64,000 nt of DNA, taken from positions 704,001 to 768,000 of the forward strand of contig CAVXRD010000003.1 in assembly GCA_963764165.1 (NCBI GenBank). Direction: 5' to 3'. Each line of letters opens with the position of its first letter. Positions within the stretch are counted from its first letter, which is position 1. The position numbers and the translations under genes are program-made. Source of the DNA: an uncultured Verrucomicrobiae bacterium. GTDB lineage: Bacteria > Verrucomicrobiota > Verrucomicrobiia > Limisphaerales > Palsa-1400. The notes below the pieces were generated by a model. That model saw only the letters and a program-made list of their open reading frames with translations, did no database searches and had not been told where the DNA came from. Of the stretch, positions 15,077 to 57,764 are shown piece after piece.

Positions 15077-16741
15077 TTATCCAACAACCTCCTGCTGGCG
15101 ATCATCTTCAAAGAGCGGGATCTCGTCGGTTTCGGCGATCTTGCCATAGTCCAATTTGACCAGCCGATCCGCCATGTAGAAATAACGGTCGTCATGCGTG
15201 ATCACCAGCACCGTCTTGCCGCGAGCCTTCAGGTCGGGCAGCAATTTCGTGTAGAACACTTTCTTGAAAATCGGATCCTGGTCGGAGGCCCACTCGTCAA
15301 ACAGGTAGAACGGGCGGTCCTCCAGATAAGCCGTGAGCAACGCCAGGCGTTTGCGCTGGCCGGTGGAGACCGACGTCGTGGAAAGCTTGCCGTTAGTCAC
15401 GCGAATCTTGTGCTTGAGGTGCAGTTGCTCGAGATAACCGCCTGCCCGCGCGTCAATGTCTTTGTCATCGATGCCAAGCAGGTTATCGAAGACAAAGAAG
15501 TCCGAAAACACCGCCGAGAACAACTGGCGGTAAGAGTCACGCGTTTTGTTGGTGACGGCTTTTCCGTCCAGACGAATTTCGCCCCCTTCCGGCAGGTAAA
15601 GGCCGGTGATGATTTTGGCGAGGGTGGATTTTCCGCTGCCGTTGCCACCCACCAGGAACACCAATTCGCCGCGGTTGAAGGCCAGGTCAATCGGCCCCAG
15701 GGTAAAGCTCGTGTCCTCCATTTCGCGATGATAGGTGTGGCTCACATTGCACAGCTCGATGCGCTCAAAGGATTGCTCATTCGCCGGCTTGTCGACTGGG
15801 CATTCTTCAGTGGAGCGCTCAGAAAGGGAAACGCCCAATTCCTGCACCTTTTGCAGTGCCACTTTGGCGCGGCCAAACAGCGAGATGCTGCTCAAGACCG
15901 CCGCCAGCGGCCCCATCATAAACAGCGTCGTCACGACATATCCCGTCATCGTCGCAGTGCTGATGGTCGACATATGAGGCGCCATAAACAAAATCAGCCC
16001 TATCAAGGCGAAGTAAAGCAGGTGGCTCCAGCTCTGCGCCGCCGCGAAGCGAACTTCCGCCGCGACATTGTGCTTTTGAAACGACGTGGTCACATTCTCG
16101 ACGTTGCGGGTCAGAAAGGCGCCCCGGCGGTCGCGGTGCAGTTTCAATTCCTTGATGCCATCGGTGAGCGCGCGGAAGTAGCCGAACAAACGGTCTTCAT
16201 CTTCCCGCGCTGCGCGGCAGTAGCGCAACGCGCTGGATACCACGACGAGATACCCCCCGGCGCCCAGCGCGATGACAACCATGATCGATGCCAGCATTTG
16301 CCACGACAGCCATCCAAGGTATATCGCGCCGCCCGCCAGGATGGCGATGTTTACCGATAAGATCGGCACCGCGAGCAAGGCCTGGGTGATGTTTAGAACG
16401 TCATCGGTCAATGCCGCCAGAATGCGGTGCGTGCCGAGATTCTCCAAATCGCGCAGCGGCACGGCAAGAATTTTTTTCACCAGGTCACGCCGCAATTCGG
16501 CGACGGCGCGCTGCGAGAATCCAGCCAGCACGGCTTGCGACAGGAACAGCGAGACAACTTTGCCAATGCCCAATCCGACGAAAGCCCAAATCAGCCCCCT
16601 GCTCGCAGAACCCGCATTGTTCATGGCCTTCGTAATCAGGGCCATCAGGCCGGCGTTGCAAACGCCGCTCAAGGCCGCCATCCCGATGGTAGCGAAGACA
16701 AGCCCGCGACAAGTGCGGAGGATGAATTTTAATAGCGTCAT
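15077..16741 (-). CDS. Cyclic-peptide export ABC transporter (SyrD/PvdE/YojI family)
   Basis: TM domain plus GGNGSGKST, STGQRKRLAL, LFDEWASDQDP, DGIKELKL; ATGA overlap with the NRPS stop. Confidence 0.95.
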   Translation of the reverse strand: MTLLKFILRTCRGLVFATIGMAALSGVCNAGLMALITKAMNNAGSASRGLIWAFVGLGIGKVVSLFLSQAVLAGFSQRAVAELRRDLVKKILAVPLRDLENLGTHRILAALTDDVLNITQALLAVPILSVNIAILAGGAIYLGWLSWQMLASIMVVIALGAGGYLVVVSSALRYCRAAREDEDRLFGYFRALTDGIKELKLHRDRRGAFLTRNVENVTTSFQKHNVAAEVRFAAAQSWSHLLYFALIGLILFMAPHMSTISTATMTGYVVTTLFMMGPLAAVLSSISLFGRAKVALQKVQELGVSLSERSTEECPVDKPANEQSFERIELCNVSHTYHREMEDTSFTLGPIDLAFNRGELVFLVGGNGSGKSTLAKIITGLYLPEGGEIRLDGKAVTNKTRDSYRQLFSAVFSDFFVFDNLLGIDDKDIDARAGGYLEQLHLKHKIRVTNGKLSTTSVSTGQRKRLALLTAYLEDRPFYLFDEWASDQDPIFKKVFYTKLLPDLKARGKTVLVITHDDRYFYMADRLVKLDYGKIAETDEIPLFEDDRQQEVVG

Positions 16742-19700
16742 GTTGATAATAATGCCGGCTGGTTTTCTGCGGTGGTGGTTTTTTGAGTTTCCTTAAGGGC
16801 TGCCGTCAAATCCGCGGCCAGGGTCTTGACGTTGGGCTCCATAAAGATGTTTTCGTGCGAACCAGGAATGAGTCTGACACTGACTTCTCCCGTGGTGAGC
16901 TTGCCCCAGCTCAAATCATGCGCAAACGAGCAGAGCATCGGATGCCCGCGCGTGCGGAACAGCGCAAGATTCCCCGTGCAGGGCTGCTGCACGTGGCGGT
17001 GAAGGGCTTGCAAATGCTTTCGCCAGAGCTTGAGTTCGTTTTCCGGGAAAAGCGCCGGGTCGATGATTTCCTCCAGGTCGACCGGGGCCTCGCCCTGCTT
17101 TCTCTTGATCCGCTTGGCTATTTTGCGGCCAATCGAGCGAATCTTTCTCCCGACAAAACGCCAGCGGTCGCGGGCCGGAACCTGCTTGAAATCTTCCAGC
17201 CAGTAATAGGTGTTGCGGGCGAACAGGAAGAAGAATTGCGGCTTCCACCATTCCACGGATTCGTAACCGACATTGACCGGCGCGGCATCCAGCAGGGCCA
17301 TCAGCGCAACCTGCGCGCCTTCGGCTTGGAGCTGGCGACCCATCTCGTAGGCCACGTTGCCGCCGAAACAATAGCCTCCGATGTAATACGGCCCCTCCGG
17401 CTGCTGGGCGCGAATGGCCTGCACGTAATACGCGGCCATCTCTTCGATGGTGTCGAATTCCTCCAGGCCAATTTGCCCGCGGGAACGCAGCGCAAAGATC
17501 GGCTGGTCGCGATCCATATGCACCAGCAAATTGGCGTAGCCCCATAGCACATCGCCGCCCGCGCCGTGGACCAGGAACAGCGGCGGCTTGCTGCCATTGG
17601 GCTGAATGGGAATGACCACTGAGTGCGATACGGCGGATTTTGCCTTGGAAAGAACCGCCGCCAATTGGCCGATCGTCGGCGCCTGAAACAAAGTGACAAG
17701 CGGCAGCTTCTGGCCGGTCATCTTTTCGACTTGGGCGAACAGTCGAACCGCGAGAAGCGAATGCCCGCCGAGTTCAAAGAAATCGTCCGCGGTCCCGACG
17801 CGCTCGACGCGCAGGAGCTTCTGCCACAACTCGCAAAGCTCGCGCTCAATTTGCGACTGCGGCGCAACGTAACGGCCGCCCGCCCCCGGACGCAACGCCA
17901 GGCGCGCTTCGATTTTTTGGTGAATTTTCGCGGCGTCGTTCAGTTCGGCGGCAATGGCGCGGCACTTGGTGAATTTCTTCACCGCGCCCGGCGCCGGAGT
18001 GGATTTGCCTTCGGTTGACGCCGGAGCAACGGGCGATTCGCTGCGCGGGGTAAATTCGACTTTGGCCGCAAATTCCGGCGGGAATTGATATTGGCCGCCT
18101 TGCTGGAATTGCGTCCCGATGCTCTCCAGAAAATCCAGCGCGGGCTTGTTCCGCGGCAGCCGCTCGAACGGGACATTCACCCATTTGGAATGGTGCTGCG
18201 CCGCCGCTTTGCCGAGGGCCTGAAGCATGCGATGCTCCACGCCGCGGCCCAGCGCGCGGCAACTCAGGAGGAATGAATCCACCACCAGCGCCTGGCCGCT
18301 AAAACTAAAAATCATCGCTCCGACCAGGCCGTAATCGCCGAAGCGATCCTTCACGGAAACGGTCCAGATTTCGGAGACTCCCGCCAACTGCTTCACTTCG
18401 CTCTCGGTGCGCCGCTTGCCGTTGACGTTGAATTGATTGGTGCGCTGCGTCAATTGTGACACGCGCGCAAGCTGCGCGGGCGCGGCCGGCGCAATGTCCA
18501 CCTGCAATTCCAGCTTGGCTATGAAATCCGCGAAGTTCGTCGATTGCGACTGCAGCTGCTCGCGCAATTGATTTTGCTGATACATCGCGGCGCGGCCCTT
18601 GTCCTCCGCCGTCGTCTTAAGCTGATCGAACGCCCAGCAGTGATCGAGAAATTGCGGGATGGCTGAAACATCTTCGGGCAACTGCAGAGCGAGAACTTCC
18701 GGGCTGTTGCCTTCCACTTCCGCGCATTCGACGGGGTTGTCGTCGATCAGCACAAAGCTATCGAGCCCAAGTTTCAATTCCTGCGCAATGGATTTGATGT
18801 TTTCTGATTTCGATTTCCAATTCACCCGCCACGCGGAAATGTGCTCGCGCAAAATCGGCATGGCGGGCCCTTTTGCGAACACCGCTTCCACGTCCGCTTC
18901 ATCGTTCTTGCTGCAAATCACGAGCAATTTGCCCGCCTCGCGCTGGCGCAGGACAAAATTTTGCAGGGCCACGCGCCCGGCTTCCAAACGAATCCCATTC
19001 GGTCCATCTTCGCCGCAAACGCCCGACCAGAGCGTATTGTCGCAATCCAGCGCGATGACTTTGCACGGAGGACGGCGCAGGGCATGAAATTTCCGGGCCA
19101 GCATGGTGGCCAGCGAGGTAAAGAACAGGGGCGTGTAGGGAATCCGGCCGAGCTCGTCGCCCGCGGGATCATCATAATCCGCCACCGGATACTTCTGTGA
19201 AAGCTCGGCGCTTGTCACGACATGGACGCCGTCAATCCCATGGAGCGTCACGGTGAGCGCCGTTTCTAGATCCTTCAGGGCTTCAGCCTTGGCTGGCTCC
19301 GCCAGCGCCATGCGCGAAGGCGGGCAGAAACAGACCAGCATCGACGCGCCGCCGCGGGCGGCTGCGCTTTGCACCGCGCTGACAAACTCGTCGGCGTGAT
19401 GTTTGATGGCTTGCCCAAATGTCAGCGCGCCGGACGCCCCTGTGTTTGACTCCCAATCATTCAAGCGAATCAGCAAAACATTCAGGCCATTGCGATTGGT
19501 GGCGAGATCGCTTTGGGAATCCAGCAATTGCTGGAAGACCTGATCGTAGGGCGCAAACTTGATCCGGGCGGAAATTTCCAATTCATCCAGCCAGAAGCGC
19601 AGCGGCTCCTCAATCGGCTCTGCCGTGAACGTTCCGCAAATCGCGATGGTTTCGGGCTGCGCGCGCTTGGGGGCTTTCAGTTCCACATCGGCAATCACCG

Positions 19701-22700
19701 TCCGCGGCGCTTCCGCCAGCATTTGCAAAACGGATTGGAAGGAGGCCAGCAATTGCTCAATCGATTTTTGATGGAACAAGCCCGCCTTGTATTCGCACGT
19801 CAGAGCAAGGCCGGCCGGCATTTCGTTGGCTTCAAAGCGGAGGTCGAGCAGCGCGGCTTCGGTGTTGACAACAATGGGAGCGCTCGTGATTCCCTCGCCG
19901 AATTGCGGCAGGTCCGGCGTGTTTTGGTAGAGCAGCGCCACATTGTAAAGCGGATTGCAGCCCGGGCGGCGCTCCACTTTGGCTGATTCCACTATTTTCT
20001 CGAACGGACAATCCTGATGCGATTGGCTTTCGATAATCTCCGCCTTCACCGCCCGCAGCGTTTCGAAGCCCGCCGCCGCGCCGGAAATTTTGAAGCGCAA
20101 TGGCAGGAAGTTCATGAAACAGCCAATGAGACCCTCAATCTCGCGGCGATTGCGGCCAGCCACCACGGTGCCGAGAACCATGTCCGTTTGGCCCGTCCAT
20201 TTGTGCAGGGTAATCGCCAGGGCGGCCATCAGCACCATGAACGGTGTTCCGCCTTCGCGCTGGCTCAATTTCACAATTTCCGCGCTCAACGCCTGCGGCA
20301 GCTCCACCGCAATCCGGCCGACCTTGGCTTCGGTCTGTTCCGCATTATCCGAGTCGGTGGGAAGTTCGACTGCGACAGGCGCGCCCGCCAATTTCTGCCG
20401 CCAATACGCCAGCTCCCTTTGCTCGGTGGCGCCTTGCAGCCAGCGGCGCTGCCATTGGGCGAAGTCCGCGTATTGCACGGGCAGCGGCGCAAAGTTGGGC
20501 GCGCTATTTCCCGAAACGATGGCGCGGTAGCTCGTTTCCAGCTCCCGGAAAAATACGTCCAGCGACCAGCCATCCGACACCGCGTGGTGCATCACAATGA
20601 GCAAAGCGTGATCGGTCGCGCTCATGCGGGCCAGCCTGGCGCGGATCAACGGGCCCCGCTCAAGATCAAATGAGCGATGCGCTTCGGCTTGCAAAACTCC
20701 GGCCAATTTCGATTCGTCGGCACCCGGAATCTCCGTCACCCACACTTGCACGCTCAATGACGGCGCAATTTTCTCCGACAGAACCCCATCAACAAAATGG
20801 AGGGTCGTGCGAAGCGCTTCGTGGCGGTCAATAATCAAATCGAGGGATTTCTGAAGGGCGGCCACATCGAGCGCGCACTTGATGCGGATCGCGGTCGGAA
20901 CGTTGTAAGCGTCGCTCTTCGGCTCAAGCTGGTTCAAAAACCACAGTTGATCCTGCATGAAGGAAGCGGGCAAGACGCCTTCGCGCGAAATCGGCTCCAG
21001 CGCTGGAACCGGCGCATTCGAATGATTCCAGCGCCCCGAATCCACTCCCGCCGCCAGGGCCTCGACCGTCGGCGCATCAAACAAGCAGGACAGCGGCAAT
21101 TCGATGCCGAGGCTTTCGCGCAGGCGCGAGATGACCTGTATGGCGGTCAGCGAATGGCCGCCTAATTCAAAGAAATGATCCGTCGCACCGATATCCTTGA
21201 TCCCCAATACTTCGCTCCAGGCTGCGGCAACCTTCTTTTCGGCATCCGTGCGCGGCGCGATCAATCCCGTGCGGGCTTCGCTCTGCCCAGCCTGCGGGGC
21301 AGGCAGCGCGCGGCGATCCACCTTGCCATTCGGCGTCAGCGGCAATTTTGGCAGGAACACGAATTGCGCGGGGGTCATGAACTCGGGCAAACGCTCCCGC
21401 GTGCAGCGGCGCAAATCATCGACCGAGGCCGTTTTCCCCGCGTTGAACACGACATAGGCCGCCAGATATTTTTCGCCGGGCCGGTCTTCACGCGCGATGA
21501 CCACCACTTCCGCCACCGCCGGATTGGCCTTGAGAGCGATTTCGATTTCGCCCAATTCAATGCGGAAACCGCGAATTTTGACTTGATGGTCGGAGCGGCC
21601 GAGATACGTCAGATTCCCGTCTTCGCGCCAGCGGGCGACGTCACCAGTTTTGTAGATGCGCGAACCCTGCTTGTAAGGGTGCGGCAGAAAACGCTCGGCG
21701 GTGAGGTCGGGGCGGTTCAAATAACCGCGCGCCACTTTATCACCGCCGATATAAAGATCGCCCGTCATGCCCACCGGCAGGGGCTGCATTTGTTTGTCAA
21801 GAATATAGACTTGCTCGTTGGCCAGCGGACGGCCGATGGTCGCCGGTTCGCCTGTTTTGCGCAGGGCGCCCGTCGAATAGGTGGTCGTTTCGGTCGGGCC
21901 GTAAAGATCGTAAACCTTCTTCGCTGACGTCTTGGAATAAATTTGCTCCACCAGCGCGGTGGCCAGCGGCTCGCCCGCAAGATTGACAACTTTGACTGAA
22001 CTGGGCACGCCGTTGATGCGGAGCAATTCGCGCATGGCCGATGGCACGGTGTTGACCAGAGTGACTTCCGAAGCGGCAGGCAGGCCCGGCAGAGCAAGCG
22101 CGTTGTCGGCCAGGATAATTTTTCCGCCCCAGCAGAGCGGAACGAACATTTCGTAAACGGAAAGATCAAAACACATCGAGGTCGACGCGAGCATTCCCGC
22201 GTACTCCTCGGGCAGAAACGCATCCTTCGCCCAGCAGACCATGGCCACGGCGTTGCGATTTTCCAGGGCGACGCCTTTCGGCTGTCCGGTCGAGCCGGAG
22301 GTGTAGAGCACGTAAGCCAAATCGTTTGGCCCGGCTTGATTCAAAGGAGCTGTCTTGTCGGAGATTGGCTGGATGTTCTCGACGAGCAGCACCTGGGTTT
22401 TCGAGGCGGGAATCAATTCGCGGAAACGCTCGCGTGTCAGCAACACGCGCAATCCAGCATCCTGCGCGATGGCCGCCAGGCGCGCCTTCGGATAAGTGGG
22501 ATCCAGAGGGACATAAGCTCCGCCCGCTTGAAGTGTTCCGAGAATCCCGGCCACCATATCCTCGGAGCGCTCGAGGCAGATGCCCACCAAAGATTGGTTG
22601 CCCACCCCTAAAGCTTGCAAACTCTTCGCAATGGTTGCGGCGCGCTCGTAAAGCTCGCGATACGTGAATCGCTTTGTCCCCACCACGAGCGCCTCCGCAG

Positions 22701-25700
22701 TGGGCGTCCGCGCGGCCTGTTCATTGAACAATTGGGCGAGCGTCTTTTCGCGCGGGTATTCCAGTTGCGTGCGATTCCATTCATTCAGAATCGTCTCCGA
22801 TTCCGCCGGGGTCAAAATAGACAGCTTGGACAGGGGCTGTTCCGGCGCCGCGACCAGAGACTGCAGAGCGGTTTCCACATGCCCCAGCATCCGTTGCGCC
22901 GTGGCGCGATTGAACAAATCCGTTGCGTATTCCAATCGGAAAACCGGCCCCAGTTCGTTGTCAAGAAGGCAGAAACGCAGGTCGTATCCCTCCACGATGG
23001 ATGGCGCCTCGGTCGCGAAAAAGACCTGCGCAATCGGGTGATATGAAGAATCCGCCGATGGGCAAATTTGCGCGATGACGTCCTTGAACGGGATTTGCGA
23101 ATGCTGGACGGCGGCAGTTTTGGCGGTGCGAACGCGGTCGAGCAAATCACGGCCCGTCATTTCCGCGGCCATGCGAGTGCGGACCACGGCAATGTTGGCT
23201 TTATGGTCACTGCCCGTTTGCAAGCCAACCGGCAGATCGTCCTGCCCGGAATACCGGTTTAAAACGACATCGAGGGCGGCCAGCGCCAAGGCGGCCCGGT
23301 CGCCGGTTTCCATTTTTGACGCCAGCGAGCGCGGCAAAGGCCGGGTTTCTGTGGCCACCGCTTTGGATAATACCGCTGGACGAGTGCGGTCGGTGGGCAA
23401 TTCCAAAAGTGCGGGTGCGCCCGCCAGCTCACGCTTCCAGAAATCCATATCGAGTTCCCTGCTTTGCTCCAGAACTTTCTTCAGTTCGGCTGCTGTTTCA
23501 TCCACCCAGGGCTCCTCCAAAACCTTCTCATGGGCGCCCTGGACGATGGTGATATTGACTCCGCGGCGGGCGAAATCGCCCCAGCCGTAATCCTGCTCGA
23601 AAGAGCACCATAACGGGTGGCCCGGGCTGCGGAACAGGTGAACACGGCCTTCGTATGGTTTTGGATGAAACTTTCGCAAGGCCAGAATATGGCTTTGCCA
23701 CAATGCGCGCTGGTCAGCCGGAATGGTGGCAAGGTCAACCAGATTTTCCGCGTCATTGGCGGCCGAGCCATTGCCGCCGCCGCCAAGCAAACGGGAAAGC
23801 TTTTGTTTGACACGGCGCGTTTTCCAGAGAATGAAATCGTGGCGCTGGGCCGGGGTCCATTGCCGGCAGTAATCGGCCCAGTAAACCAGATTTTTGGCGA
23901 ACCGCAGCCCCCACGCAGGGGTATAACTGAATTGGGTGTAGCTCGAGTTCGGCGGAGCGCAATTGAGCAGCGCCAGCAAGGCGACTTTTTCGCCCTGCGC
24001 CTCGATTTGCCGCGCCATTTCAAAGGCCACGTTTCCACCGAAACAATATCCGCCGAGATAGTAGGGGCCGTGCGGCTGGATGCGGCGCATATCCTTGACA
24101 TATTGCGCGGCCATTTCCTCCATGGTGTCGAATTCCTGGTGGCCGTTCAGCCCGCGGGAACTCAATCCGTAGACAGGCTGGTCCGCGCCAAGCCGGCGGG
24201 CAAGATTCACGTAGCCCCAGAACATTCCGCCACCCGCTCCGTGGACGAGAAATAACGGAGGCTGTGTTCCCTTGGGCTGCAACTCGACAACAGACGTTCC
24301 GGCGGTGGCGCTTTCGTCGCGAATCTCGTCACGCACCACCACTGCCAGCTTCTCCACGGTCGCCGCGGTAAAGATCGCCGCGAGCGGCAGTTTTTTCCCG
24401 AAGGCCTTCTCAATGCGCGCGGAAACTTTGACGGCCAGCAGCGAATGGCCGCCCAGATCGAAAAAATTATCCTCGATGCCAACGGGTTCGACGCCCAGCA
24501 CGCTTTCCCAAATGCGGCACAGCTCCAATTCGACAGCGTCCCTCGGTGATGCGTATTTGCGCGTCAATGTGGGACGGGCGTGGTCCGGCTCCGGCAGGGC
24601 GCGGCGATCCACTTTCCCGTTGTGTGTCAGCGGAAGGGATTCGATTTGCACGAACGCCGAAGGAATCATGTATTCCGGAAGATGTTCGCCAAGAATGGCG
24701 CGCAACTGATTCGGCTTGGGCGCGAGTTTTCCATCCGGGACATAGTAGGCCACCAGGCGGGTCTGGCCGGCTCCGGAGCCGCAGACTTTGACCGCGCATT
24801 CGCGCACGCCAGGGCAGCGTCCCATCACGGCTTCGATTTCGCCCAACTCGATGCGATAACCGCGCAGCTTTACCTGGTTATCGATGCGGCCCAAATACTC
24901 GACGTTCCCATCCGGGAGCCAGCGGGCGAGGTCCCCGGTGCGATAGAGGCAGACACAGGGGCTGTCTGCGCTAAATTGATGAAGAACAAATTTCTCAGCG
25001 GTGAGCTCCGGACGATTCCAGTAGCCCTTGGCCAACCCGTCGCCACCGGTATACAACTCGCCCGGAACGCCAATTGGGACCGGATTGCGATTCGCGTCAA
25101 GTATATAAACCTGGGTATTCGAGAGCGGCTTGCCAATCGGCACGTTCGTCGCATTTTCTGGAATGTCGCGCAGGAGAGCGCAACAGGTGAATGTCGTGTT
25201 CTCGGTCGGGCCGTAACCATTGACGAGGCGGTGCGGCGGGCGGTCTTTGAGCACCGCGCGCACCCATCGCGCATCCAGCGCTTCGCCGCCGGCCATCACG
25301 GTCCGCATGGTGGCAAACGCGCCGGGAACCTCCGAGGCCACCTGGCTGAACAATGCCGAGGTCAGGAACATCGCGGTGATGCCCTGCTCGCGCAATTCCG
25401 CCGCAAAATCCTTCGGCGAGAGCGCAATGTCCGTTGCGATGCCGCGCAATTGCCCGCCGTTGAGCAGCGAGCCCCAAATTTCAAACGTCGCCGCGTCGAA
25501 AGACATGTTCGACACTTGGGCGATGCGGTCGGTCGCATCCAGCTGGATATAGTTCGTCTTGAAAACCAAACGATTCACGCCGAGATGCGGCACGGCCACG
25601 CCCTTGGGCTGGCCTGTCGAGCCGGAGGTGTAAATGATATAGGCGGTGTCCGTCGGCTTGGTGCGATTTGGAAGATTCTCGGCGCTCTCGCGCTGGATTT

Positions 25701-45574: not shown

Positions 45575-45611
45575 AAAGGGGCCGCGCAACGGAAACGTTC
45601 GCGGCCCCTTT
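45575..45611. terminator. Rho-independent terminator between convergent genes
   Basis: AAAGGGGCCGCG..CGCGGCCCCTTT, paralogous to 41123-41162. Confidence 0.85.
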
Positions 45612-45684
45612 CGTTCTCTGGGTGGCGCGACGGAATCGCTGCAATGAGCTACCACGAAACTTTTAAACACTCGCGGCTTGAGAA

Positions 45685-49061: not shown

Positions 49062-50202
49062 AGGCAGGCCAAACTCGTTTGAAGACGCCCACCAACCCGG
49101 CCCAATCCGGCGCGTCGGTGTGGAGCAATTGCTGCAATCGGCGCAAGAGGCGCGGCTTCGAGGTCACGTCCGTGTCCCACAGCAGGAGTGCCAGCGCGTT
49201 GAAAAGGCGCTCTCGCGGATAGCGGAATGAGGACGCTTCCGGAAACGCCTTAAATCCGAACGTCCGAACACTCAAAAGGAAGTTTCGCCACGCGGAAGTC
49301 TCCGGGCACTTTTCGACGGTGCTCAGGGCGTAATCGGAGATGGTTTCAAAGCTCTGCTTCAATCGGCGGCTCTCCAGCCACAGCCAAAGCCTCTGCGCCA
49401 GCGCCGTCAATTGCCTATGTTCCACTTCAAATTCCTCAACTGATTTGCTGGAAATCTTGGGATGCAGCTTGAATGCCATTCCGGCGACATGGTGCGCCCG
49501 GATTTCCGGCATCCACGGATTCAACTCTCCCGCATCCAACACCGCCAGCCGCCGGTTGCGCTCGCAGACGCTCCAATGATATTCGCCGAAAACGGTCAAG
49601 ACGGCGTCGCCCAGCGCGAGTTGCAACTTGGCGATATTGCGGCCGATAAAATCCGCCTCTTCCCGCGTCAATCGCCGCTTGTCCAACAGTTCTCGCGCCA
49701 TCAGTAGACCTGAGCAGCGATTGAACATTAGGCGGGTGGCTTCCGATAAAGGAATGGCCGGGGCGCGCAAATGGTGGCCGCAATCATTCAGGATTCCTTC
49801 ATTCCCAAAAATAACGCGATGCCCCGCCACCAGATCGTAGCTGAACATCGTCACCGCGCTGTCCCTCCACCTGTCAATAACATCTATTTTGAACTCAACC
49901 GCCATGCCCGCATCCACCGAAAGGCGCTCGCCCAGCTCGTGCAGTTTCCCTCGATACCGGCGGTCATTCAGCACACGATTGCCGCGCAGGAAAACATAGA
50001 ATTCGAAATCGTTGTACGGTTTGTCAGCAGCCGCTTCGCGCAAAACGCCGCCTTCGCCGCGGCCGTAGCCGCCGCCCAGCACAATGGCGTCGATTTCTTT
50101 GGCCGGAATCGCCGCCGTCACACCTTCGCGAACTTGCTCGCAAAGCTGCTCCAACCGCGTTTCCAGTTCGGCGCTTCCGTCAACTGTGAACCGTTTGATC
50201 AT
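49054..50202 (-). CDS. Nucleotidyltransferase-like protein (Pol-beta-type motif plus helical domain)
   Basis: IVLGGGYGRGEG..PYNDFEFYV; overlaps both neighbours. Confidence 0.7.
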   Translation of the reverse strand: MIKRFTVDGSAELETRLEQLCEQVREGVTAAIPAKEIDAIVLGGGYGRGEGGVLREAAADKPYNDFEFYVFLRGNRVLNDRRYRGKLHELGERLSVDAGMAVEFKIDVIDRWRDSAVTMFSYDLVAGHRVIFGNEGILNDCGHHLRAPAIPLSEATRLMFNRCSGLLMARELLDKRRLTREEADFIGRNIAKLQLALGDAVLTVFGEYHWSVCERNRRLAVLDAGELNPWMPEIRAHHVAGMAFKLHPKISSKSVEEFEVEHRQLTALAQRLWLWLESRRLKQSFETISDYALSTVEKCPETSAWRNFLLSVRTFGFKAFPEASSFRYPRERLFNALALLLWDTDVTSKPRLLRRLQQLLHTDAPDWAGLVGVFKRVWPAYG

Positions 50203-51064
50203 TTCGATAAAATTTCCATCCTTCGCGAAAACCCTCCAATTTGGCGCGCCGCTGCTGCCAGCGAATTTGCGCGGCGTGCGGCAATTCCTTCAGGCGGCCT
50301 TCGCGCGCGCAGAATTGAAAATCGCGGCGGAGATCGTTCATCCAGCCGAGCATCACCGTGCGCGGCCAATTGACTTCCGAGACCGGGCGCTGCCACACCG
50401 CAGCGAGCGCCTTCGCCTCGCCAAAGGACCGTTTGTAAGCCTGCGCGGGAGTGTAATTATGCGAGTGCATGACCACCGACTCCGGGCAGTAAACCACTTT
50501 GTATCCTTGGGCGCGGCACCAGCGAGTATACTCGTCGTCTTCCGAATATTGCATCGACTCCAGGAAACCGCGCTTGGACCAGATGTCCTTGCGCAATCCG
50601 CTGCTGACCATGCTGAAAAAATGATCCCATTGCGCGGAATCCCGGCTTTCGCCAAAACACCGAACGTAATCGTGGGCAAACACCGCCTGGCAATCCGGCC
50701 GCGGAATCTGCCGCCCAAATACGGCGGCCGTTTTCTCGTCCTGCAATGCGTTCACCAGCGGCCGCAGCCAGTTCCGCCCCTGTGGTGTCGCGTCGGCGTT
50801 CACAAAAATTGCGAATTCCGAACTGGCAAGCTTCATTCCCAAATTCATCACGCGCGACGGATTATATTCGTGCGGCCGAATTTGGATGAAGTGACTTGGC
50901 CCGGCGTCCTGAATCAAATCCACCGAGCCGTCCGTGGAGCCGGAATCAATCACAATCAGCTCCCAATTCTTCCAATCCTGATTTTTCAACGCAGGCAGCG
51001 TCTGGCGAAGAGCCCACCCTTCGTTAAACGAACGCATAATGATACTGATCAATGGATCACTCAT
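50180..51064 (-). CDS. Glycosyltransferase family 2
   Basis: ISIIMRSFNE, IDSGSTDGS, FVNADA, SEDDEY, VMHSH. Confidence 0.95.
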   Translation of the reverse strand: MSDPLISIIMRSFNEGWALRQTLPALKNQDWKNWELIVIDSGSTDGSVDLIQDAGPSHFIQIRPHEYNPSRVMNLGMKLASSEFAIFVNADATPQGRNWLRPLVNALQDEKTAAVFGRQIPRPDCQAVFAHDYVRCFGESRDSAQWDHFFSMVSSGLRKDIWSKRGFLESMQYSEDDEYTRWCRAQGYKVVYCPESVVMHSHNYTPAQAYKRSFGEAKALAAVWQRPVSEVNWPRTVMLGWMNDLRRDFQFCAREGRLKELPHAAQIRWQQRRAKLEGFREGWKFYRNDQTVHS

Positions 51065-51214
51065 CTCAGCGACAAGAGTGCCGGAAATTTAGTTTCGGCG
51101 TATGGGTGAATACCCCACTCCGCCCCGTCCTCCATCTTTTCACAATCTCACCGATAATGGGCGGTAATCGAGGTCCGCGTGATTCCGCAGGGCCCAAATG
51201 CGGTTTATTCGGGG

Positions 51215-51252
51215 AAAAAACCAAGGGTGCAATAGGGTGAAATAGGATGCAA
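51215..51252 (-). promoter_or_regulatory. 10-bp-period tandem motif, second copy, upstream of the GT2 operon
   Basis: Minus strand TTGCATCCTA TTTCACCCTA TTGCACCCTT GGTTTTTT. Confidence 0.5.
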
Positions 51253-51318
51253 TGCCCTGGCCCTGGATCGGGTAGGAATGAAGGGATGGAGAGGCGCAGG
51301 TAAGATTGCCGCCGGTCC

Positions 51319-51550
51319 GCTTTGAGCGGAGCGCGGCTGTGTCGAAGACCAGCCGCAGCAACTCTCAAACAACTGACAGCGATTCTTGTTGCGGCCACCT
51401 CCAAAAAACAGATTAAAACTTCGGAACTGCGACTGGCGAGCCTGGAGATCTTTCCAACGCGCCACTCGTTTCGACGCGGCTGCGGCTGGTCTTCGACACA
51501 GCCGCGCTCCGCTGTCGGCCTGCGTCCACCACGCGTTTTCAATCACACCC
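51319..51550. repeat. REP/MITE-like element, copy 3
   Basis: Same 30-bp IR pair and homologous core (AAAACTTCGGAACTGCG) as copy 1; ends TTTTCAATCACACCC. Confidence 0.85.
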
Positions 51551-51697
51551 CTCGAATCAGAGACCGATTGCCTCGTCTCGCGCCTTTCAAAATGTCAAAG
51601 AACCCGCCCTGACGGGCACAGGGAGAAAAATAAGCTCAAAAATCTTTTTTGTCAATTATGCTTGCAGTTACACTGTTTCGTGGTATTTAGTGAGCGT

Positions 51698-52712
51698 ATG
51701 ACAACCGTATCATCGATTGTTCAGCCGGGGCCGGTGGCGAAAACAGCGCCGGGCCAGGAGTGCTGCGGGCCGACCGGCCGCGCCCGCACCAGCAAGATCG
51801 CGCGTCTGCCCGCCGATATCCGGGCTGAATTGAACGAGCGGCTTCTGGAAGCGGAGCCGCCTGCCGCCATTCTGGAATGGCTCAACGGCCTCCCGGAGGT
51901 GCAGCGCGTGCTGGCGCAATCTTTTGACTCCCAGCCCATCACGGAAGTCAACCTCTCGCGCTGGCGCCAGGGCGGTTACGCCGGGTGGCTGGAGCAGCGG
52001 AACACGCAGGAGGCGGTGGAAGCCGTGGCGACGGCCGCCGCCGGGGTGGAAGGTCCGGCGGCGGAAAATCTCAACCGGCATCTGGCGGTCGTGCTGAGCG
52101 CGCGGCTGTTCGTGGAGATGCAGCGCTGCGGGGCCATGCCCGACGGGCCGGACAAGACGGCGTCGCTGCACCAATTGGTGGTGTCTGTACGCCCTGTTGC
52201 GCCGAGCGGAGTATTATGGCGAGAAGGTGCGGCTCGACCGGGAGAAGCTGAAAATGCTGGAGGAGCGCCTGCGGCAAGAGGCGGAAAAAAACCGCAAGCG
52301 CTCGCCCGAGGAACAGGAGGACCGCATCAATAAAATCCTGGGCACAGGCCGCTTCGCCGCCAACTGGAACAACGACCTAAGACGATGGGAAGGGCCGGGA
52401 GCGGCGATGCGGTATGAGGAGGAGGAAGTCACGCTCCAGGTGCGGACGGAAATGAAGCGGCGCTATCCCAATGGTTTCCCGGAAGGCTACCGCCCTCCCT
52501 ACGGCGACCCATTGCCCGTTTATCCTAAGCCTGTTGACACCCCAAAGAGTGTCAATCATTCAGAGCAGAAGCCCAGTGTTCCAGCGCGCAGCGATGACGA
52601 TAGCCCGCCCAGCAATCCCAACGGGAGAATGGCGAGAAAAGGTAGCGGACACAACACAGGCCACCATGGGTGGATGTTGGGCGACAATCGACAAATGAAC
52701 AAATTGCCATGA
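51698..52712 (+). pseudogene. DUF3486/Mu gp27-like protein with one frameshift near 52180
   Basis: RTSKIARLPADIRAELNERL..WLNGLPEV..NLSRWRQGGY; continues in another frame as LYALLRRAEYYGEK..coiled coil. Confidence 0.6.
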
Positions 52713-53024
52713 CGACGCTTATGCGCGAGGGCAATGCGGCTTTTACGGCCCCGGCGCGAGCGGCGGAAATGGCAGCGGATGAAGACTGATTCCCATTTCC
52801 GAATACAAAAGTGCCAAAAGTGAGGACTGACGTAGGCATGACGTATGCACAGGTTCTTAATGACTACCGAAGGGCTGGTTCGGGAGTGAAAATCGGCGCC
52901 GAGTGCGCGCATTCCCGGAAAAAGCGTTTTGGCACAACGATTTAACTTGCGGATCCGGGTGGGGGGAAATAGAAAATCATTAAATGGAAATGCCAGTCAA
53001 ACCAATAACGAATTGAGCGTTCTT

Positions 53025-54797
53025 ATGAAATCCACAAAACAATCCCCAAGCGTATTGCTAACACTCAATAGAATTCTCCCCGCCCTAACGGGAGGATTGT
53101 TACTTTTCTCGGGCACTGCCCTGCGCGCTCAGACAAACTCCATTCTGGACCTCGGCACTTTGGGAGGGGCCAGCAGCTCGCCGAACGGAATAAACAACAA
53201 CGGTCAGGTTTGTGGCTCAGCATATACCACTAATGGGGAACAGCACGCTTTCCTCTACACCAACGGAACCATGATAGATTTGGGCACGTTGGGAGGCTCC
53301 TTCGCCAGCGGGTCAGCAATAAACAACAGCGGGCAAGTTGCCGGCGAATCATATACGCCCGGTAATTCATCCTCCTCTACGCATGCTTTCCTCTACACAT
53401 CTGGAGCCTTGCAAGATTTGGGCACTTTGGGCGGATCCTACAGCGAGGCGGACGCAATGAACGACAGCGGCTGGGTTGTCGGCGCTTCATATACGGCTGG
53501 TAATGCTCTAAATCCTTTCCTCTACACCAATGGAGTCATGTATGACTTGGGTACATTGGGAGGAGACTGGGGCGCGGCGAGCGGCGTAAACAACAAGGGT
53601 CAGGTTAGTGGCGTAGCATATACCGCTAATGTGGAAGAGCACGCTTTCCTCTACACCTCTGGAGCCATGCTAGATTTGGGCACTTTGGGAGGGTCGGTTA
53701 GCTATGCGAACGGAATAAACAACAACGGTCAAGTTACTGGCGGTTCATATACCGCCAGTGGGGCTACCCATGCTTTCCTCTACACCTCTGGAGCCATGCA
53801 AGATTTGGGCACTTTGGGGGGGGACACCAGCTTTGCGGAAGGAATAAACGACAACGGCCAGGTTGTCGGCTGGTCTGACACCTCTGATGGCACACAGGAT
53901 GCTTTCCTCTACATCAATGGCGTGATGATCGACCTCAATAATCTGCTTCCGGCAAATTCCGGTTGGACTCTCGAAAATGCTGTGGCTATCAACGATTTGG
54001 GGCAAATCGTCGGACAGGGTTATAATGCGGCCACCGGCCAAGACGATGCATTTTTGCTCAACATCTACTCGCCGCTCTCCGTAACTGCCCAACCGCAATC
54101 GTTGGAGGTCAATGCTTTCACCACCGCATCATTTTCCGTGACTGCAACCGGCACGCCACCTCTGGGCTACCAATGGTCGGTGAACGGCACAAACATCCCG
54201 GGGGCTACTTCCAGCACTTTGACGGTTTCAAATGTGGTGCAAACAAATTTAGGAACGTATTCCGTATTAGTCACCAGCGCTTCCGGCTCGACCAACAGTT
54301 CTAATGCAACGCTCTCGATGTATCCTTACTTGATCGCTCCATTTGCCGGGGTCGATACGTATTGGGGCCAAACAAACACCTTGAGCGTAGGTGCCTGGGG
54401 AACGGGGCCGTTGAGTTACCAATGGTTTGACAACGGGAACGCCATCGACAGTGCTACGAATTCTACTTTGACGCTGTCCAACATTCAATTCACAAATGCC
54501 GGACTTTATTCAGTAGTCGTGTCAAGCGCGTTGGGCAGCGTCACAAATACCCCGAATCAGGTCATTGTGAACCCGGCCAATGTCGGAGTTCAACTCTGCC
54601 CGAATGTCGTGATTCAGGGGACCGTCGGCTACAATTTCATCATTCAGAGCACGACTAATCTAGCCGACACGAATTCATGGATAACTCAAGCCAACCTGAC
54701 TCTAACTCAACCAGTGCAGTTCTGGGATGACACCAATACAGACGTCAACCAGCCAAGCAATCCACGGAAGTTTTATCGGGTGTTGCCTGGACAATAA
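53025..54797 (+). CDS. Secreted HAF-repeat (extracellular beta-propeller) protein with Ig domains
   Basis: Six to seven ~44-aa repeats DLGTLGG..INNxGQV..HAFLY; two Ig-like YQW domains; tail PRKFYRVLPGQ. Confidence 0.92.
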   Translation: MKSTKQSPSVLLTLNRILPALTGGLLLFSGTALRAQTNSILDLGTLGGASSSPNGINNNGQVCGSAYTTNGEQHAFLYTNGTMIDLGTLGGSFASGSAINNSGQVAGESYTPGNSSSSTHAFLYTSGALQDLGTLGGSYSEADAMNDSGWVVGASYTAGNALNPFLYTNGVMYDLGTLGGDWGAASGVNNKGQVSGVAYTANVEEHAFLYTSGAMLDLGTLGGSVSYANGINNNGQVTGGSYTASGATHAFLYTSGAMQDLGTLGGDTSFAEGINDNGQVVGWSDTSDGTQDAFLYINGVMIDLNNLLPANSGWTLENAVAINDLGQIVGQGYNAATGQDDAFLLNIYSPLSVTAQPQSLEVNAFTTASFSVTATGTPPLGYQWSVNGTNIPGATSSTLTVSNVVQTNLGTYSVLVTSASGSTNSSNATLSMYPYLIAPFAGVDTYWGQTNTLSVGAWGTGPLSYQWFDNGNAIDSATNSTLTLSNIQFTNAGLYSVVVSSALGSVTNTPNQVIVNPANVGVQLCPNVVIQGTVGYNFIIQSTTNLADTNSWITQANLTLTQPVQFWDDTNTDVNQPSNPRKFYRVLPGQ

Positions 54798-54840
54798 AGA
54801 CCTATCGCGGAAATCAAAGCGGCAGATACTTGTGTCCTCG

Positions 54841-54886
54841 CTTTTTGCGCTAGATGAGACCGGCTGGAATTTCGGCGGCTCTAAGA
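54841..54886 (+). repeat. ~45-bp direct repeat, left copy
   Basis: CTTTTTGCGCTAGATGAGACCGGCTGGAATTTCGGCGGCTC matches 55966-56011. Confidence 0.8.
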
Positions 54887-55044
54887 GGGGCTACCGCCTT
54901 CGCTGTCGCTTCGGCGCTACAAGTCCGCCTTGGCCGAGGCTTCGGCGCGACAAGTCCGGATAGGCGTTTTTCGAGCTTTGGGCGGGGCGAAGTCGAAAGC
55001 ATTGTCCGTCGCCCGGTGCCGAGATGCGGTAGGCATGAACGGAT

Positions 55045-55273
55045 ATGGATTACCGTAAGTTCATCACCATTGAGGCTGGCAAGCGCGGCGGGCGTCCGTG
55101 CATTCGGAGGACGCGGATCGCCGTGGCCGACGCGCTTGGCTGGCTGGCTGCCTGCGGGGATGACGCACGCTGAAATCATTGGCGACTTTCCTGAATTGAC
55201 GCAGAAAGACGTTCGGGCTTGCCCCGAGTACGCCGCTGAACGTGAACGCCGCCTCGTCACTGTGGCCGAATGA
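55045..55273 (+). pseudogene. DUF433 antitoxin, frameshifted by a 4-bp CTGC duplication
   Basis: MDYRKFITIEAGKRGGRPCIRRTRIAV..LGWLAA / GMTHAEIIGDFPELT. Confidence 0.8.
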
Positions 55274-55431
55274 AGCTGCTCTTATACCAGAACTTGAGTT
55301 TCAAATTGGCGAAGAAGCTGGGGGATGTATTTCCAGGGTCGGAGCAAGTAAGATTGGTCGGGATGCATGAAGCCGAAGACGACCGTTCCCGGCCTGTTCG
55401 CGGGCTTGCAAACAGGTGCGGGCCGCTTTAA
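55270..55431 (+). pseudogene. Truncated DUF5615 (PIN-like) toxin
   Basis: MKLLLYQNLSFKL (Tyr at the usual catalytic Asp), only 53 codons; ATGA-coupled to DUF433. Confidence 0.7.
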
Positions 55432-55440
55432 TTCTTTTCC

Positions 55441-55638
55441 ATGAGTGCTGAGGAATTGGAGTCGGAAGTGACACGGCTGTCGAAACCGGAATTGGCTGCT
55501 TCTTCTCGATGGTTCGAGGAATTCGCCGCGGACTTATGGGATAAGCAGATCGAAACGGACATCGCTTCTGGCAAGCTCGATCACCTCGCGAGGCAGGCCG
55601 ATGAGCATTTTGATGCAGGCCGCTGCACTCCCCTTTGA
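55441..55638 (+). CDS. Putative antitoxin
   Basis: WDKQIETDIASGKLDHLARQA..AGRCTPL; overlaps the toxin start. Confidence 0.75.
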   Translation: MSAEELESEVTRLSKPELAASSRWFEEFAADLWDKQIETDIASGKLDHLARQADEHFDAGRCTPL

Positions 55639-55892
55639 ACCACTTTGCCACTCCTGAGTATTTGTTTCATTAACGCCGGCTGGCGCCGGACCTTCGCGAA
55701 TTGGCCGACGCAAAATTCCAGTTGCTGAAATCAGACCCACGCCATCCATCGCTCCGGTTCAAGAAAACTGGCATCCTTTGGTCCGTTCGGATTGGAGTGC
55801 GACATCGCGCGTTAGCCAGAGAACGAAAGGAAGGCTTTGTTTGGTTCTGGATAGGCAGGCATGACGCTTACGAGCAGATTCTGAAAAGATGA
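55635..55892 (+). pseudogene. RelE/ParE-like toxin with an in-frame nonsense codon
   Basis: TTG start, TAA at 55671-55673, then ADAKFQLLKSDPRHPSLRFKK..WSVRIG..WFWIGRH. Confidence 0.75.
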
Positions 55893-55965
55893 AGCCCTTC
55901 GCCAGCCTCCTAGAAATCTGGCGCTGCCATTTGATGCTGATGGCCATGCGCCGGTGTCACCCTAA

Positions 55966-56011
55966 CTTTTTGCACTAAAAGAGACCGGCTGGAATTTCGG
56001 TGGCTCCGAGA
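55966..56011 (+). repeat. ~45-bp direct repeat, right copy
   Basis: CTTTTTGCACTAAAAGAGACCGGCTGGAATTTCGGTGGCTC. Confidence 0.8.
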
Positions 56012-56017
56012 CGAGTT

Positions 56018-56320
56018 CCCGCCTTCGCGGAAGGCTTCCCCCTTCGCTAAAGCTTCCTCACTTCGCTAAAGCTATGGAGGACGAGACGGACGACAGGAGG
56101 CTTCCGCCTTCGCGCTTTGGCGTGATCGAGCAGGAAACTTCACGCCGTGGGCGCGGACCTGCCTGCCCAAAAGGGGCTAAAGACCGACGGCAAGCGATTG
56201 AGGAGAACTGGCCCTCAACACAACATCCCGGGCGTCGCGGGGGTCGCTCCTACGGAGCTTGGAACATTTTTGTGGCGGGTTTCTACAACGATGCCGCGCC
56301 TGCGGCGCTTCGGCGGCGGC
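56018..56320. repeat. Cluster of short REP-like palindromes
   Basis: Repeated CCTTCGCTAAAGCTT / CGCCTTCGC units (also at 54894-54955) and GCTCCTACGGAGC / GCGCCTGCGGCGC hairpins. Confidence 0.6.
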
Positions 56321-56355
56321 CAGGCCTTCCTGTCGCCTCAAGTCGCTGAACCCGT

Positions 56356-57579
56356 TTATGAAATTGCCGCTGCCTGATAACGGTCTGACCGGGCAGAGCC
56401 GCCCGTCGTGGGTCGGCCGGAATTGGCCGCCTTCGCAAGATCGGCGTCGCGGGTCATCAATCGGAAAACATCGGGAATCGCAGTAACGCCGTCCGGGATG
56501 GTCGGCTGGTTGGTGCAAAGGGAAGCGTAGCTGTGGGCGTCCGTTGGGTGGTAACCGTGCATGCCGCGAATGGGCCTGGCGCCCATGTGGCTCGGGACAA
56601 TCAGAACCCCTTCCTTGGCCAGGAAAACCAATTCGCCGAAATAACGGTCTTTGAAGAGAGTGCCCATTTTCTCCAGTTCTTCATCCGGCACGATGCGCCC
56701 AAGCTCAACCTTTTGCAGGGCGCTCGTCACCAGCCAGCGGGCGCGGTCGTTGAAGAACCAGAATCGCGCCATTGTGGAATCGTAGACCACGGCATAGTCA
56801 TTCGGCACACGCAGTTGCAGTGCGTCGATTTCTTTCTTGAGATCCAGGATGGTATCGCAATTGGCCATGCCGTGATCGCTAAATACGTAAAGACGCACTT
56901 CTTCGTAATGCCCTTTGGCCGCCGCCAGAAGCTGCCCGATCCATTCCTCGTAGACGCGGAGCTTCACGGGAATTTCCGGGGATTTATTTCCCAGCATGTG
57001 AAGCATCCCGTCGAGGCCCGGCCAGTATTGAAAAGCAAAATCGATGCGCTCGGATTTTATTTCGCTCACCAAGGCGCTGAGGTTGACATGTTCGTCCAGC
57101 GTCGGATCGCTGACGAAATATGGGATTTCCCGCTCCACCAAATAATCGAAAATATTCGGCCCGCGATTGAGCCCCTTGGGCTGGAGGGGATTTTTGGTCT
57201 CGCTGAAGTTGTAGAGGGAGATTTGGTTGAACGGGATGTTGTAGAGATCGAAGTATCCGCGAAAACTGAGCCGGTTCTTGATAAATTTGGAAAGATACCG
57301 GCGGAAAATTCGGCGGCTGGTCAGGGCGGTGGGCAGCCATTGCAGGGGCTTGAGGGACCTGAAGGGAGAGCGTTCCGGCTCGTAAACAAAATAGTTCCAA
57401 TTGCGATGCTCCACGGGCCAGCGGCCTGACAAGATGGAAGGCACGCAGGCCGAGCTGTAGCCGAAAACCGAGGTCAGGCGCCGGCGGTTCGGCGCCATCT
57501 TGTTCATGAACGGATCGCTCTTGATGATCTCCCAGCCGCAGGCGTCAATAAAAACAAATAGAGGCAGAACTGGCTTCAC
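56356..57579 (-). CDS. Alkaline-phosphatase superfamily (nucleotide pyrophosphatase/phosphodiesterase-like) protein
   Basis: FVFIDACGW, GYSSAC, LDGMLH, FSDHGM, GMHGYHP. Confidence 0.9.
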   Translation of the reverse strand: MKPVLPLFVFIDACGWEIIKSDPFMNKMAPNRRRLTSVFGYSSACVPSILSGRWPVEHRNWNYFVYEPERSPFRSLKPLQWLPTALTSRRIFRRYLSKFIKNRLSFRGYFDLYNIPFNQISLYNFSETKNPLQPKGLNRGPNIFDYLVEREIPYFVSDPTLDEHVNLSALVSEIKSERIDFAFQYWPGLDGMLHMLGNKSPEIPVKLRVYEEWIGQLLAAAKGHYEEVRLYVFSDHGMANCDTILDLKKEIDALQLRVPNDYAVVYDSTMARFWFFNDRARWLVTSALQKVELGRIVPDEELEKMGTLFKDRYFGELVFLAKEGVLIVPSHMGARPIRGMHGYHPTDAHSYASLCTNQPTIPDGVTAIPDVFRLMTRDADLAKAANSGRPTTGGSARSDRYQAAAIS

Positions 57580-57764
57580 GCTCTGCCCTCCGCGGCGCGA
57601 GCGGACCTCAGCATCTGCGAAGAACGGACTTTTCGGCCGGAGCGGGCCGGCAGCCTGGCAATCGACCCTCTCTCAATCGGGACAACTCTCGGTTTGAGGT
57701 CACCCGGCGCGAAGGCAACGGGAATGAAGGTCACGGGCGCGCGTCTTGTGATTAGGTTCAACAT
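57576..57764 (-). CDS. Small basic protein (62 aa) coupled to the phosphodiesterase
   Basis: SD GAAAGGA just before ATG 57764; GTGA stop/start overlap with the next gene. Confidence 0.5.
   Translation of the reverse strand: MLNLITRRAPVTFIPVAFAPGDLKPRVVPIERGSIARLPARSGRKVRSSQMLRSARAAEGRA

Follow-up and report, generated by a model that had tools for sequence, protein, structure and literature searches.

Do the nonribosomal peptide synthetase (NRPS) genes and the glycosyltransferase genes that share one strand of a Verrucomicrobiae contig serve one pathway, and what would that pathway build? The window, that is, the whole stretch of 64,000 nucleotides that was analysed, is G000:C3:704001-768000 from an uncultured bacterium (source genome G000, 7.0 Mb, 97% complete; G and L numbers are genome and locus labels). 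Among named relatives, its genes come nearest to records of Verrucomicrobiae, Pedosphaera, and Limisphaerales. A reading made from the sequence alone had proposed a single peptide-glycan cluster split by two insertions. The two halves very probably do form one functional system. Their linkage, the nesting of NRPS-bearing genomes within those carrying WecB, the invariant cysteine thioesterases (Cys-TEs), and the presence of either a Wzx flippase or an ATP-binding cassette (ABC) exporter in each cluster genome are established. On balance, the best-supported explanation is that the NRPS, phosphopantetheinyl transferase (PPTase), and ABC genes were inherited with the WecB and GT4 genes of a Wzy/Wza exopolysaccharide (EPS) cluster and that the products of the former likely add short peptides to the lipid-linked repeat units of that cluster. 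The gene run and the blocks interrupting it, with adenylation (A), thiolation (T, carrier), condensation (C), and thioesterase (TE) domains abbreviated, are as follows.

56356..57579, minus strand: phosphodiesterase (PDE) of the alkaline-phosphatase superfamily (PF01663), a core gene of the EPS operon
51065..56355: insertion 2, with repeats, a HAF-repeat/immunoglobulin-like (Ig) secreted protein (52929-54797, plus strand), DUF433/DUF5615, and ParE-like remnants
50180..51064, minus strand: GT2 glycosyltransferase (Pfam), a core EPS gene
49054..50202, minus strand: orphan Pol-beta-type nucleotidyltransferase (NT) without a Pfam or NCBIfam match, a core EPS gene
48282..49061, minus strand: Sfp/HetI-type PPTase (Pfam/NCBIfam)
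46847..48295, minus strand: WecB/TagA/CpsF (GT26) glycosyltransferase with two STAS domains (Pfam)
45685..46830, minus strand: GT4 glycosyltransferase, the fixed partner of WecB (Pfam, synteny)
36002..45684: insertion 1, with a ParE toxin-antitoxin pair (36920-37452, plus strand), DUF705, a DUF4240 fragment, repeats, and two lectin/Ig secreted proteins (38940-41087 and 41496-45536, plus strand)
30923..36001, minus strand: NRPS1, A-T-C-A-T
27552..30848, minus strand: NRPS2, C-A-T
16738..27555, minus strand: NRPS3, C-A-T-TE-halfC-A-T-C-FkbH-T-TE
15077..16741, minus strand: SyrD/PvdE-type cyclic-peptide ABC exporter (TIGR01194)

The genes named by the sequence-only reading were all present in the order it gave, except for the small open reading frame (ORF) that it had placed at the head of the run. 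For this 62-codon ORF (57576-57764), tblastn against the fetched loci returned nothing better than E 0.48, and there was no NCBIfam match; it was therefore rejected as probably not a gene. Both interrupting blocks proved to be insertions, as had been supposed: they are lineage-specific and absent from G001 (same genus) and G011 (same family, other genus). The uninterrupted run in these two genomes is PDE-GT2-NT-(PPTase)-WecB-GT4-NRPS1-NRPS2-NRPS3-ABC-GH15, with PDE adjoining GT2 and GT4 adjoining NRPS1 at a spacing of 673 bases (G001) or 828 bases (G011). The PDE orthologues are 58-81% identical and occupy the same operon slot in relatives. Repeats in the insertions had up to 66 genome-wide matches per 250-base bin, and the Ig/lectin/HAF secreted proteins had 10-18 paralogous loci in the genome. 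A perfect 35-base inverted repeat at 51325-51513 is part of an element with dozens of genome copies. HAF/Ig secreted proteins also occur in or near the operon at L054, L123, L063, and L088, which may reflect the abundance of the family.

The comparison sample comprised 221 genomes of the order, G000 included, most of them fragmented assemblies. With match thresholds that we set at gaps in the score lists, NT was found in 52 genomes (E<1e-40), the Cys-TE clade in 34 (E<1e-45), WecB-STAS in 56 (E<1e-60), the operon Wzx in 29, and the ABC exporter in 27 (E<1e-140, five weaker matches being left out). Four WecB matches were orphans without GT4 (G006, G008, G167, and G193) and were set aside, giving 52 cluster genomes; the Cys-TE count among these is 37, made up of the 34 plus G012, G078, and G183, which had weaker matches. 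A WecB orthologue was present in 34/34 genomes of the Cys-TE clade versus 56/221 overall and in all 27 ABC genomes, counts that ignore the kinship of genomes related by descent. NT accompanied the Cys-TE in 31 of the 34, the other 3 having no match. The sequence-only reading had regarded either half occurring routinely without the other as evidence against a single cluster; the sugar operon did occur without a Cys-TE NRPS in 15 of the 52 cluster genomes, whereas the NRPS was never found without WecB. All 10 genomes in which the PPTase lies between NT and WecB, a slot held elsewhere by GT4c, have both NRPS and ABC.

Physical linkage took several forms. Sugar genes and NRPS are in tandem in G000, G001, and G011, and NRPS and WecB face each other head-to-head in 14 genomes, which span 9 families (G003, G052, G073, G117, G126, G136, G144, G151, G156, G168, G175, G198, G242, and G243). 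A lone A-T-TE(Cys) protein lies between PDE and Wzx in G007, G012, G053, L084, L104, L120, and L128, and ABC plus NRPS lie on the opposite strand near NT at L117 and L130. The PPTase was found beside the NRPS or ABC in 11 other genomes. An accident of neighbourhood, in which the NRPS landed beside a sugar operon once and has hitch-hiked since, would fit its single origin on the WecB+GT4 tree and the separation of the halves in many genomes; it is nevertheless very improbable, because the linkage recurs in tandem, head-to-head, inside the operon, and on the opposite strand, the PPTase moves between the two halves, and these co-occur even without physical linkage and in genomes beyond the order. 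The original proposal, a single system that insertions have split, is thus supported by the synteny, the 34/34 nesting, and the head-to-head arrangement.

The WecB+GT4 tree (55 sequences, FastTree) required 1 change for the TE, 2 for ABC, and 4 for Wzx, compared with 13-18 for shuffled labels. The trait pattern follows the operon's own history, and families f1, f31, f35, and f70 are split across it. Distances in the ABC and WecB+GT4 trees of the 27 genomes were correlated (rho 0.80; 0.62 after removal of rpoB protein distance), a result that is supportive only; protein distance served as the control, the nucleotide rpoB tree agreeing poorly with the protein tree (rho 0.48). G151 and G156 belong to different families and have nearly identical ABC and TE sequences in the trees, a likeness that suggests recent horizontal transfer.

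What do the sugar genes belong to? They are the core of a larger Wzy/Wza EPS cluster, the rest of which lies at C3:655-683 kb, about 21-48 kb left of the window. This part holds two OPX export proteins, a GT2, a Wzy_C protein, two GT4, a hexapeptide protein, and two GH9; the Wzy, Wza/Wzc, and two GH9 genes, together with the exchange of ABC for Wzx described below, go beyond the sequence-only reading. The Wzy-type protein (G000:C3:661754-663193) matches Wzy_C at 33.8 bits (cut-off, 31.7), from which we infer a polymerase activity, in a family that also includes ligases. The Poly_export/SLBB proteins are at C3:655.6-659.8 kb, one of them with a chain-length N-terminus, and the Wzc/Wza part follows ABC on the same contig in G001 and G011. 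Clusters without an NRPS are contiguous in G218, G215, G241, G112, G163, and G190, in the order PDE, Wzx, GT2, GT4b, NT, GT4c, WecB, GT4, and Wzc/Wza. The closest solved structure to WecB is TagA, which acts on an undecaprenyl-diphosphate sugar, and from this relationship we infer undecaprenyl-diphosphate-linked intermediates. The NCBIfam EpsA match, at 195 bits, fell below the cut-off of 500. A single query, the Bac_transf part of a G053 protein, found no priming sugar transferase in G000, and Pfam searches of 38 window and 29 flanking proteins, which together with NCBIfam profiles supplied the domain calls, found no MBOAT or DltD-type transfer protein with a free carrier. A phylum-wide search for WecB gave mostly distant matches (14/181); 8 of the loci were fetched, and one (G255) is WecB-GT4-Wzc/Wza-Wzy.

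GT2 is present in 72/80 NT loci, and NT itself counts as part of the polysaccharide core because it is found both with and without the NRPS. NT had no sequence match in the PDB. Its glycine loop and acidic triad are conserved (GGGYGRG, D65, E67, and E103), and its alignment-based model (pLDDT 97; 41 for the single-sequence fold) best matched the aminoglycoside nucleotidyltransferase-like structure 7uy4 ANT (Z 11.5, rmsd 3.8, 220 aligned). The top structural matches all belong to the Pol-beta nucleotidyltransferase superfamily (Z 10-11.5), with a Foldseek E of just 3.5e-3. The model thus points to a Pol-beta nucleotidyltransferase shaped like the aminoglycoside nucleotidyltransferases.

Several observations bear on the wider sugar locus. 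At L172:11788-14778, a chain-length determinant and an OPX export domain are fused in a protein of 997 residues that is conserved in relatives. MdoG/MdoH periplasmic glucan genes lie between the two GH9 genes (L173:6901-10595; G000:C3:672-676 kb) and also occur in G001. A SpoIIE phosphatase/anti-sigma kinase fusion upstream of PDE in many clusters (e.g., L044:15553-17346 and other Wzx-type loci) is a likely partner of the WecB STAS domains. A stand-alone FkbH protein is encoded in another polysaccharide cluster (G000:C2:744852-745937; L175:8741-10606), and in G158 FkbH and MBOAT genes are directly downstream of ABC.

The NRPS half appears able to make two products. Its A, T, and C domains are intact with their catalytic motifs, and a PPTase is present. 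As the sequence-only reading had observed, that PPTase is the only one in the window and overlaps both neighbours (NT by 8 bases and WecB by 14 bases), and the window's six PP-binding matches, of 9 in the genome, are all in the NRPS; the genome has two PF01648 matches, of which the PPTase is one. NRPS1 is A(Ser-like)-T-C(modAA, dehydrating type)-A(Gly code)-T, the NRPS2 A domain has a Val code, and NRPS3 is C-A(Ile/Val code)-T-TE(Cys)-half C-A(Ala code)-T-C-FkbH-T-TE(Cys), the C-like region that follows TE1 being a half domain without HHxxxDG. The specificity codes are DVWNIAMVHK, DILQLGFIWK, DAFWLGGTFK, DAFFMGGTFK, and DLYNNALTYK, and they are nearly identical in G001, G011, G022, and G025. 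The codes other than the first we take to read Gly, Val, Ile/Val, Ala, and Pro. The first differs at one position from DVWNVAMVHK, which loads L-Ser in tistrellabactin (PMC10391617). The following C domain has its closest matches in McyA (E 9e-127) and AmbE, stands after a Ser-type module, and carries the motif KTVLLAAH, in agreement with the [K/R]SVLLAAH-type motif described for CmodAA domains (PMC11342130); because of this relationship and motif, it probably dehydrates the serine. Since no domain N-acylates the serine amine, a pyruvoyl end is the likely chemical result of the dehydrated Ser. The NRPS1 start is probably near 35935, where its orthologues begin, and a promoter/terminator scan of 35700-36400 found nothing. 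The FkbH domain of NRPS3 scored 304 bits against TIGR01686 (cut-off, 146.65), and FkbH loads glycerate in other NRPSs (PMC8949500).

Both thioesterases of NRPS3 read GYCFGG. Among the fetched loci, 121 TE matches left 107 aligned domains after removal of those with <200 residues and of identical copies; the nucleophile is Cys in 106/107, and the His is kept in 104/107. Domain order and Cys-TEs therefore indicate that two units are made, each ending at a Cys-TE. The Gln-Cys-Asn motif of SulM is absent from both TEs, which have Tyr-Cys-Phe instead. At the usual triad position (NRPS3 residues 1196-1202), TE1 has Asn (LLNCAPP) versus Asp in TE2 (LLDAAP), and the two may differ in chemistry. Module number and A-domain codes vary widely among genomes, and the TE and ABC stay. 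Elsewhere in the source genome, a locus near 2.955 Mb of G000:C2 (L176:6732-11336) encodes an A-T protein, a P450, and a condensation domain over two ORFs, a possible further client of the PPTase.

How, then, would the product leave the cell? The ABC exporter matched TIGR01194, the SyrD/PvdE cyclic-peptide exporter model, at 518.8 bits (cut-off, 286.2) and is a candidate replacement of the Wzx flippase. Of the 52 cluster genomes, 25 had ABC only, 25 had Wzx only, 2 had both, and 0 had neither. The cluster Wzx orthologue was not found in G000, whose three Wzx-like genes sit on other contigs, and searches of G000 contig C3 and of the contiguous clusters in G001, G011, and G126 found no Wzx-like protein. 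An MsbA-like ABC gene at G000:C3:683-685 kb was rejected as the flippase, having no close match in related clusters. The 20 sample genomes with a GT4c orthologue were Wzx-type without exception, none being ABC-type, and the 25 with a separate Wzy subtype were all ABC-type (25/27). In 80 NT loci from the genome collection, some from the same genomes as the sample, Wzx (30 loci) and the Wzy subtype (23 loci) never shared a locus. When the pattern was tested as a prediction, five genomes picked by their Wzy subtype all had ABC and Cys-TE; one (G431) is G117, already counted, so that four were new, and three records were Opitutaceae. None of five Wzx-type genomes had ABC. Ten cluster genomes have a Cys-TE NRPS with Wzx and no ABC orthologue, so that no exporter of this family is available to their product.

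These distributions bear on a simpler possibility, namely, that the NRPS makes a free secreted peptide (a surfactant, signal, or matrix additive) exported by ABC, the EPS link being shared biofilm regulation and the repeat units using another flippase. The cyclic-peptide family of the exporter accords with this, co-regulation would follow from a divergent promoter region that the NRPS and WecB-STAS have in common, most ABC-type genomes have other Wzx genes, and the ABC/Wzx split reflects few events. A free peptide would leave unexplained why Wzx and GT4c are missing wherever ABC is present, how the 10 NRPS-bearing Wzx-type genomes manage without an ABC orthologue, and which product an A-T-TE standing alone between PDE and Wzx would set free; every NRPS of this clade that was found came with WecB. 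We regard this possibility as unlikely.

A small secreted glycopeptide is a further alternative, the peptide being placed on one repeat unit or glycosylated by WecB/GT4 and left unpolymerised, as proposed for carenaemin, which depends on an NRPS/PKS locus as well as a Wzy-type locus (PMC8313283). Among the sugar genes, WecB and GT4 alone are constant companions of the NRPS; G151, G156, and G226 lack NT, PDE, and GT2 matches, and G151 and G156 also lack a Wzy match, although both are fragmented (360 and 210 contigs). Yet the conserved Wzy subtype is kept in 25/27 ABC-type sample genomes and Wzc/Wza in 4/5 tested ones, and WecB and GT4 also serve NRPS-free clusters, so that this alternative has a rather low probability. 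The sequence-only reading had also offered a multiply glycosylated peptide, which is less favoured, since clusters without an NRPS use the same glycosyltransferases. Its other suggestion, that the peptide or Ala-glycerate unit decorates a glycan, is favoured here rather than demonstrated.

A peptide that leaves the cell on the repeat unit is the simplest account because of four observations together: the nesting, the in-operon A-T-TE, the NRPS with Wzx and no ABC, and the loss of Wzx and GT4c beside a large NRPS and ABC. In such a pathway, WecB, GT4, and GT2 would work with the glycosyltransferases encoded left of the window to build an undecaprenyl-diphosphate oligosaccharide with a probably beta-1,4-glucan-like backbone (GT26 plus GH9). 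The PPTase would activate the six carrier domains, and NRPS1-2-3 would build Ser-Gly-Val-Ile/Val, the modAA domain dehydrating Ser, which with a free amine would probably give a pyruvoyl cap at the end; the second half of NRPS3 would build alanyl-O-glycerate through FkbH. Each Cys-TE would act as a transacylase that moves its chain onto a repeat-unit sugar. The ABC exporter would flip the peptidyl glycolipid in place of Wzx, the distinct Wzy subtype would polymerise the units, and Wzc/Wza would export the polymer; Wzx would flip units with small substituents and ABC those with larger peptides. We suggest tentatively that peptide-grafted EPS may be a second kind of bacterial peptide-glycan, in which variable NRPS peptides loaded via Cys-TEs took over from sugar side chains and the flippase role passed to a cyclic-peptide ABC exporter when the units became too large for Wzx.

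A number of points weigh against attachment to the repeat unit. The product, acceptor, and enzyme activities are all predicted; the ABC family is annotated as exporting secreted peptides; and the characterised Cys-TEs ObiF and SulM cyclise small molecules (PMC11298585). The PPTase has no constant place in the operon, being missing from the NT-WecB slot in G001 and G025, and G193 has PPTase-WecB with no TE match. NRPS and WecB occur without a match to NT, PDE, or GT2 in the three genomes named above, and 15 of the 52 cluster genomes are without a Cys-TE NRPS. The halves are on different contigs in G017, G022, G025, and most ABC-type genomes, and the 673-828 bases between GT4 and NRPS1 in the intact clusters leave a single transcript uncertain. 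The co-occurrence counts are not independent because so few changes (TE 1, ABC 2, Wzx 4) are needed on the tree, and 1-2 events on the gene tree suffice for the ABC/Wzx split. G122 and G185 carry ABC and Wzx together. Other Wzx-family genes lie elsewhere in 23/29 ABC-type genomes searched, none <30 kb from a known cluster piece and the nearest 33-37 kb from NT (G170 and G138); because such genes exist and the known flippases of G122, G185, and G190 escaped the family search, a borrowed or undetected flippase is possible.

Neighbouring genes of the window include, upstream of PDE, PqiA, MlaD, a CHASE3-PAS kinase, and a response regulator (57985-62326, minus strand), a block partly syntenic in G001, G017, and G025 and a possible cluster regulator. 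A DNA polymerase III alpha (DnaE) gene lies at 1964-5593 (plus strand); in G017 a DnaE-like gene also follows ABC. One run at 6892-10438 (plus strand) comprises an epimerase, a second WecB/TagA without STAS, and a B12 radical SAM enzyme that is HpnJ-like, below the cut-off, and may represent a separate glycolipid pathway. A 585-codon ORF open at the window edge (3-1757, minus strand) had no Pfam or NCBIfam match, and its 5' part may overlap a repeat.

How does the cluster compare with known systems? Dlt, in teichoic acid D-alanylation, and AlmEFG, in lipid A glycylation, use an A domain and a carrier to bring an amino acid to a surface glycoconjugate. These systems handle single amino acids with separate transferases, whereas here multi-module NRPSs end in Cys-TEs and no MBOAT was seen in the cluster. 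The xanthan gum and Myxococcus eps clusters encode Wzx/Wzy-dependent EPS systems in which GT26 performs the second step and a GH9 glucanase is present. GT26, GT4, GT2, a Wzy_C protein, chain-length/OPX export proteins, and GH9 are shared with this type; unlike it, the present cluster lacks Wzx and has extra NT, PDE, PPTase, NRPS, and ABC genes. The best sequence matches of the TEs, over the first 124 residues only, were the transesterifying TE 7CRN/7DXO (E 1e-23) and 4ZXH (E 2e-20). We know of no acylation of a glycan by the TEs of AB3403, ObiF, SulM, or 7CRN/7DXO. A Cys nucleophile is common to the NRPS3 TEs and to AB3403 (PDB 4ZXH), ObiF, and SulM (PMC11298585). In the cystomanamide and vioprolide modules, FkbH replaces an A domain and loads glycerate, and in vioprolide a C domain forms an ester on the glycerate (PMC8949500); unlike those modules, C-FkbH-T here ends the line and is followed by a Cys-TE. 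The CmodAA domains of McyA, AmbE, and Crz1 are the closest structures and share the motif type, the C6 arginine pair, and the position after a Ser-type module (PMC11342130), but no starter C domain acylates the serine amine here.

A literature search, whose coverage excluded most subscription journals, found no description of this cluster. The nearest published proposal is carenaemin from Collimonas arenae Cal35, for which NRPS/PKS and Wzy-dependent loci are both needed and the authors propose a peptide on a lipid-linked repeat unit that is then flipped (PMC8313283). Carenaemin differs in being a small diffusible antifungal with unlinked loci, a Wzx flippase, and attachment as a hypothesis (PMC8313283), whereas in the Verrucomicrobia the genes are inherited together and, where Wzx is absent, there is an ABC exporter. 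The cluster is best described as a variant Wzy/Wza EPS system that carries an NRPS and in which ABC has apparently taken the place of Wzx; it occurs in three natural states: sugar only with Wzx, a small NRPS with Wzx, and a large NRPS with ABC. If the proposal is true, NRPSs counted as antibiotic-type clusters in abundant uncultured Verrucomicrobia would build side chains of matrix polymers, cysteine thioesterases would have a glycan-acylating role and SyrD/PvdE-type exporters a flippase role, and the system would offer a modular route for grafting chosen peptides onto polysaccharides.

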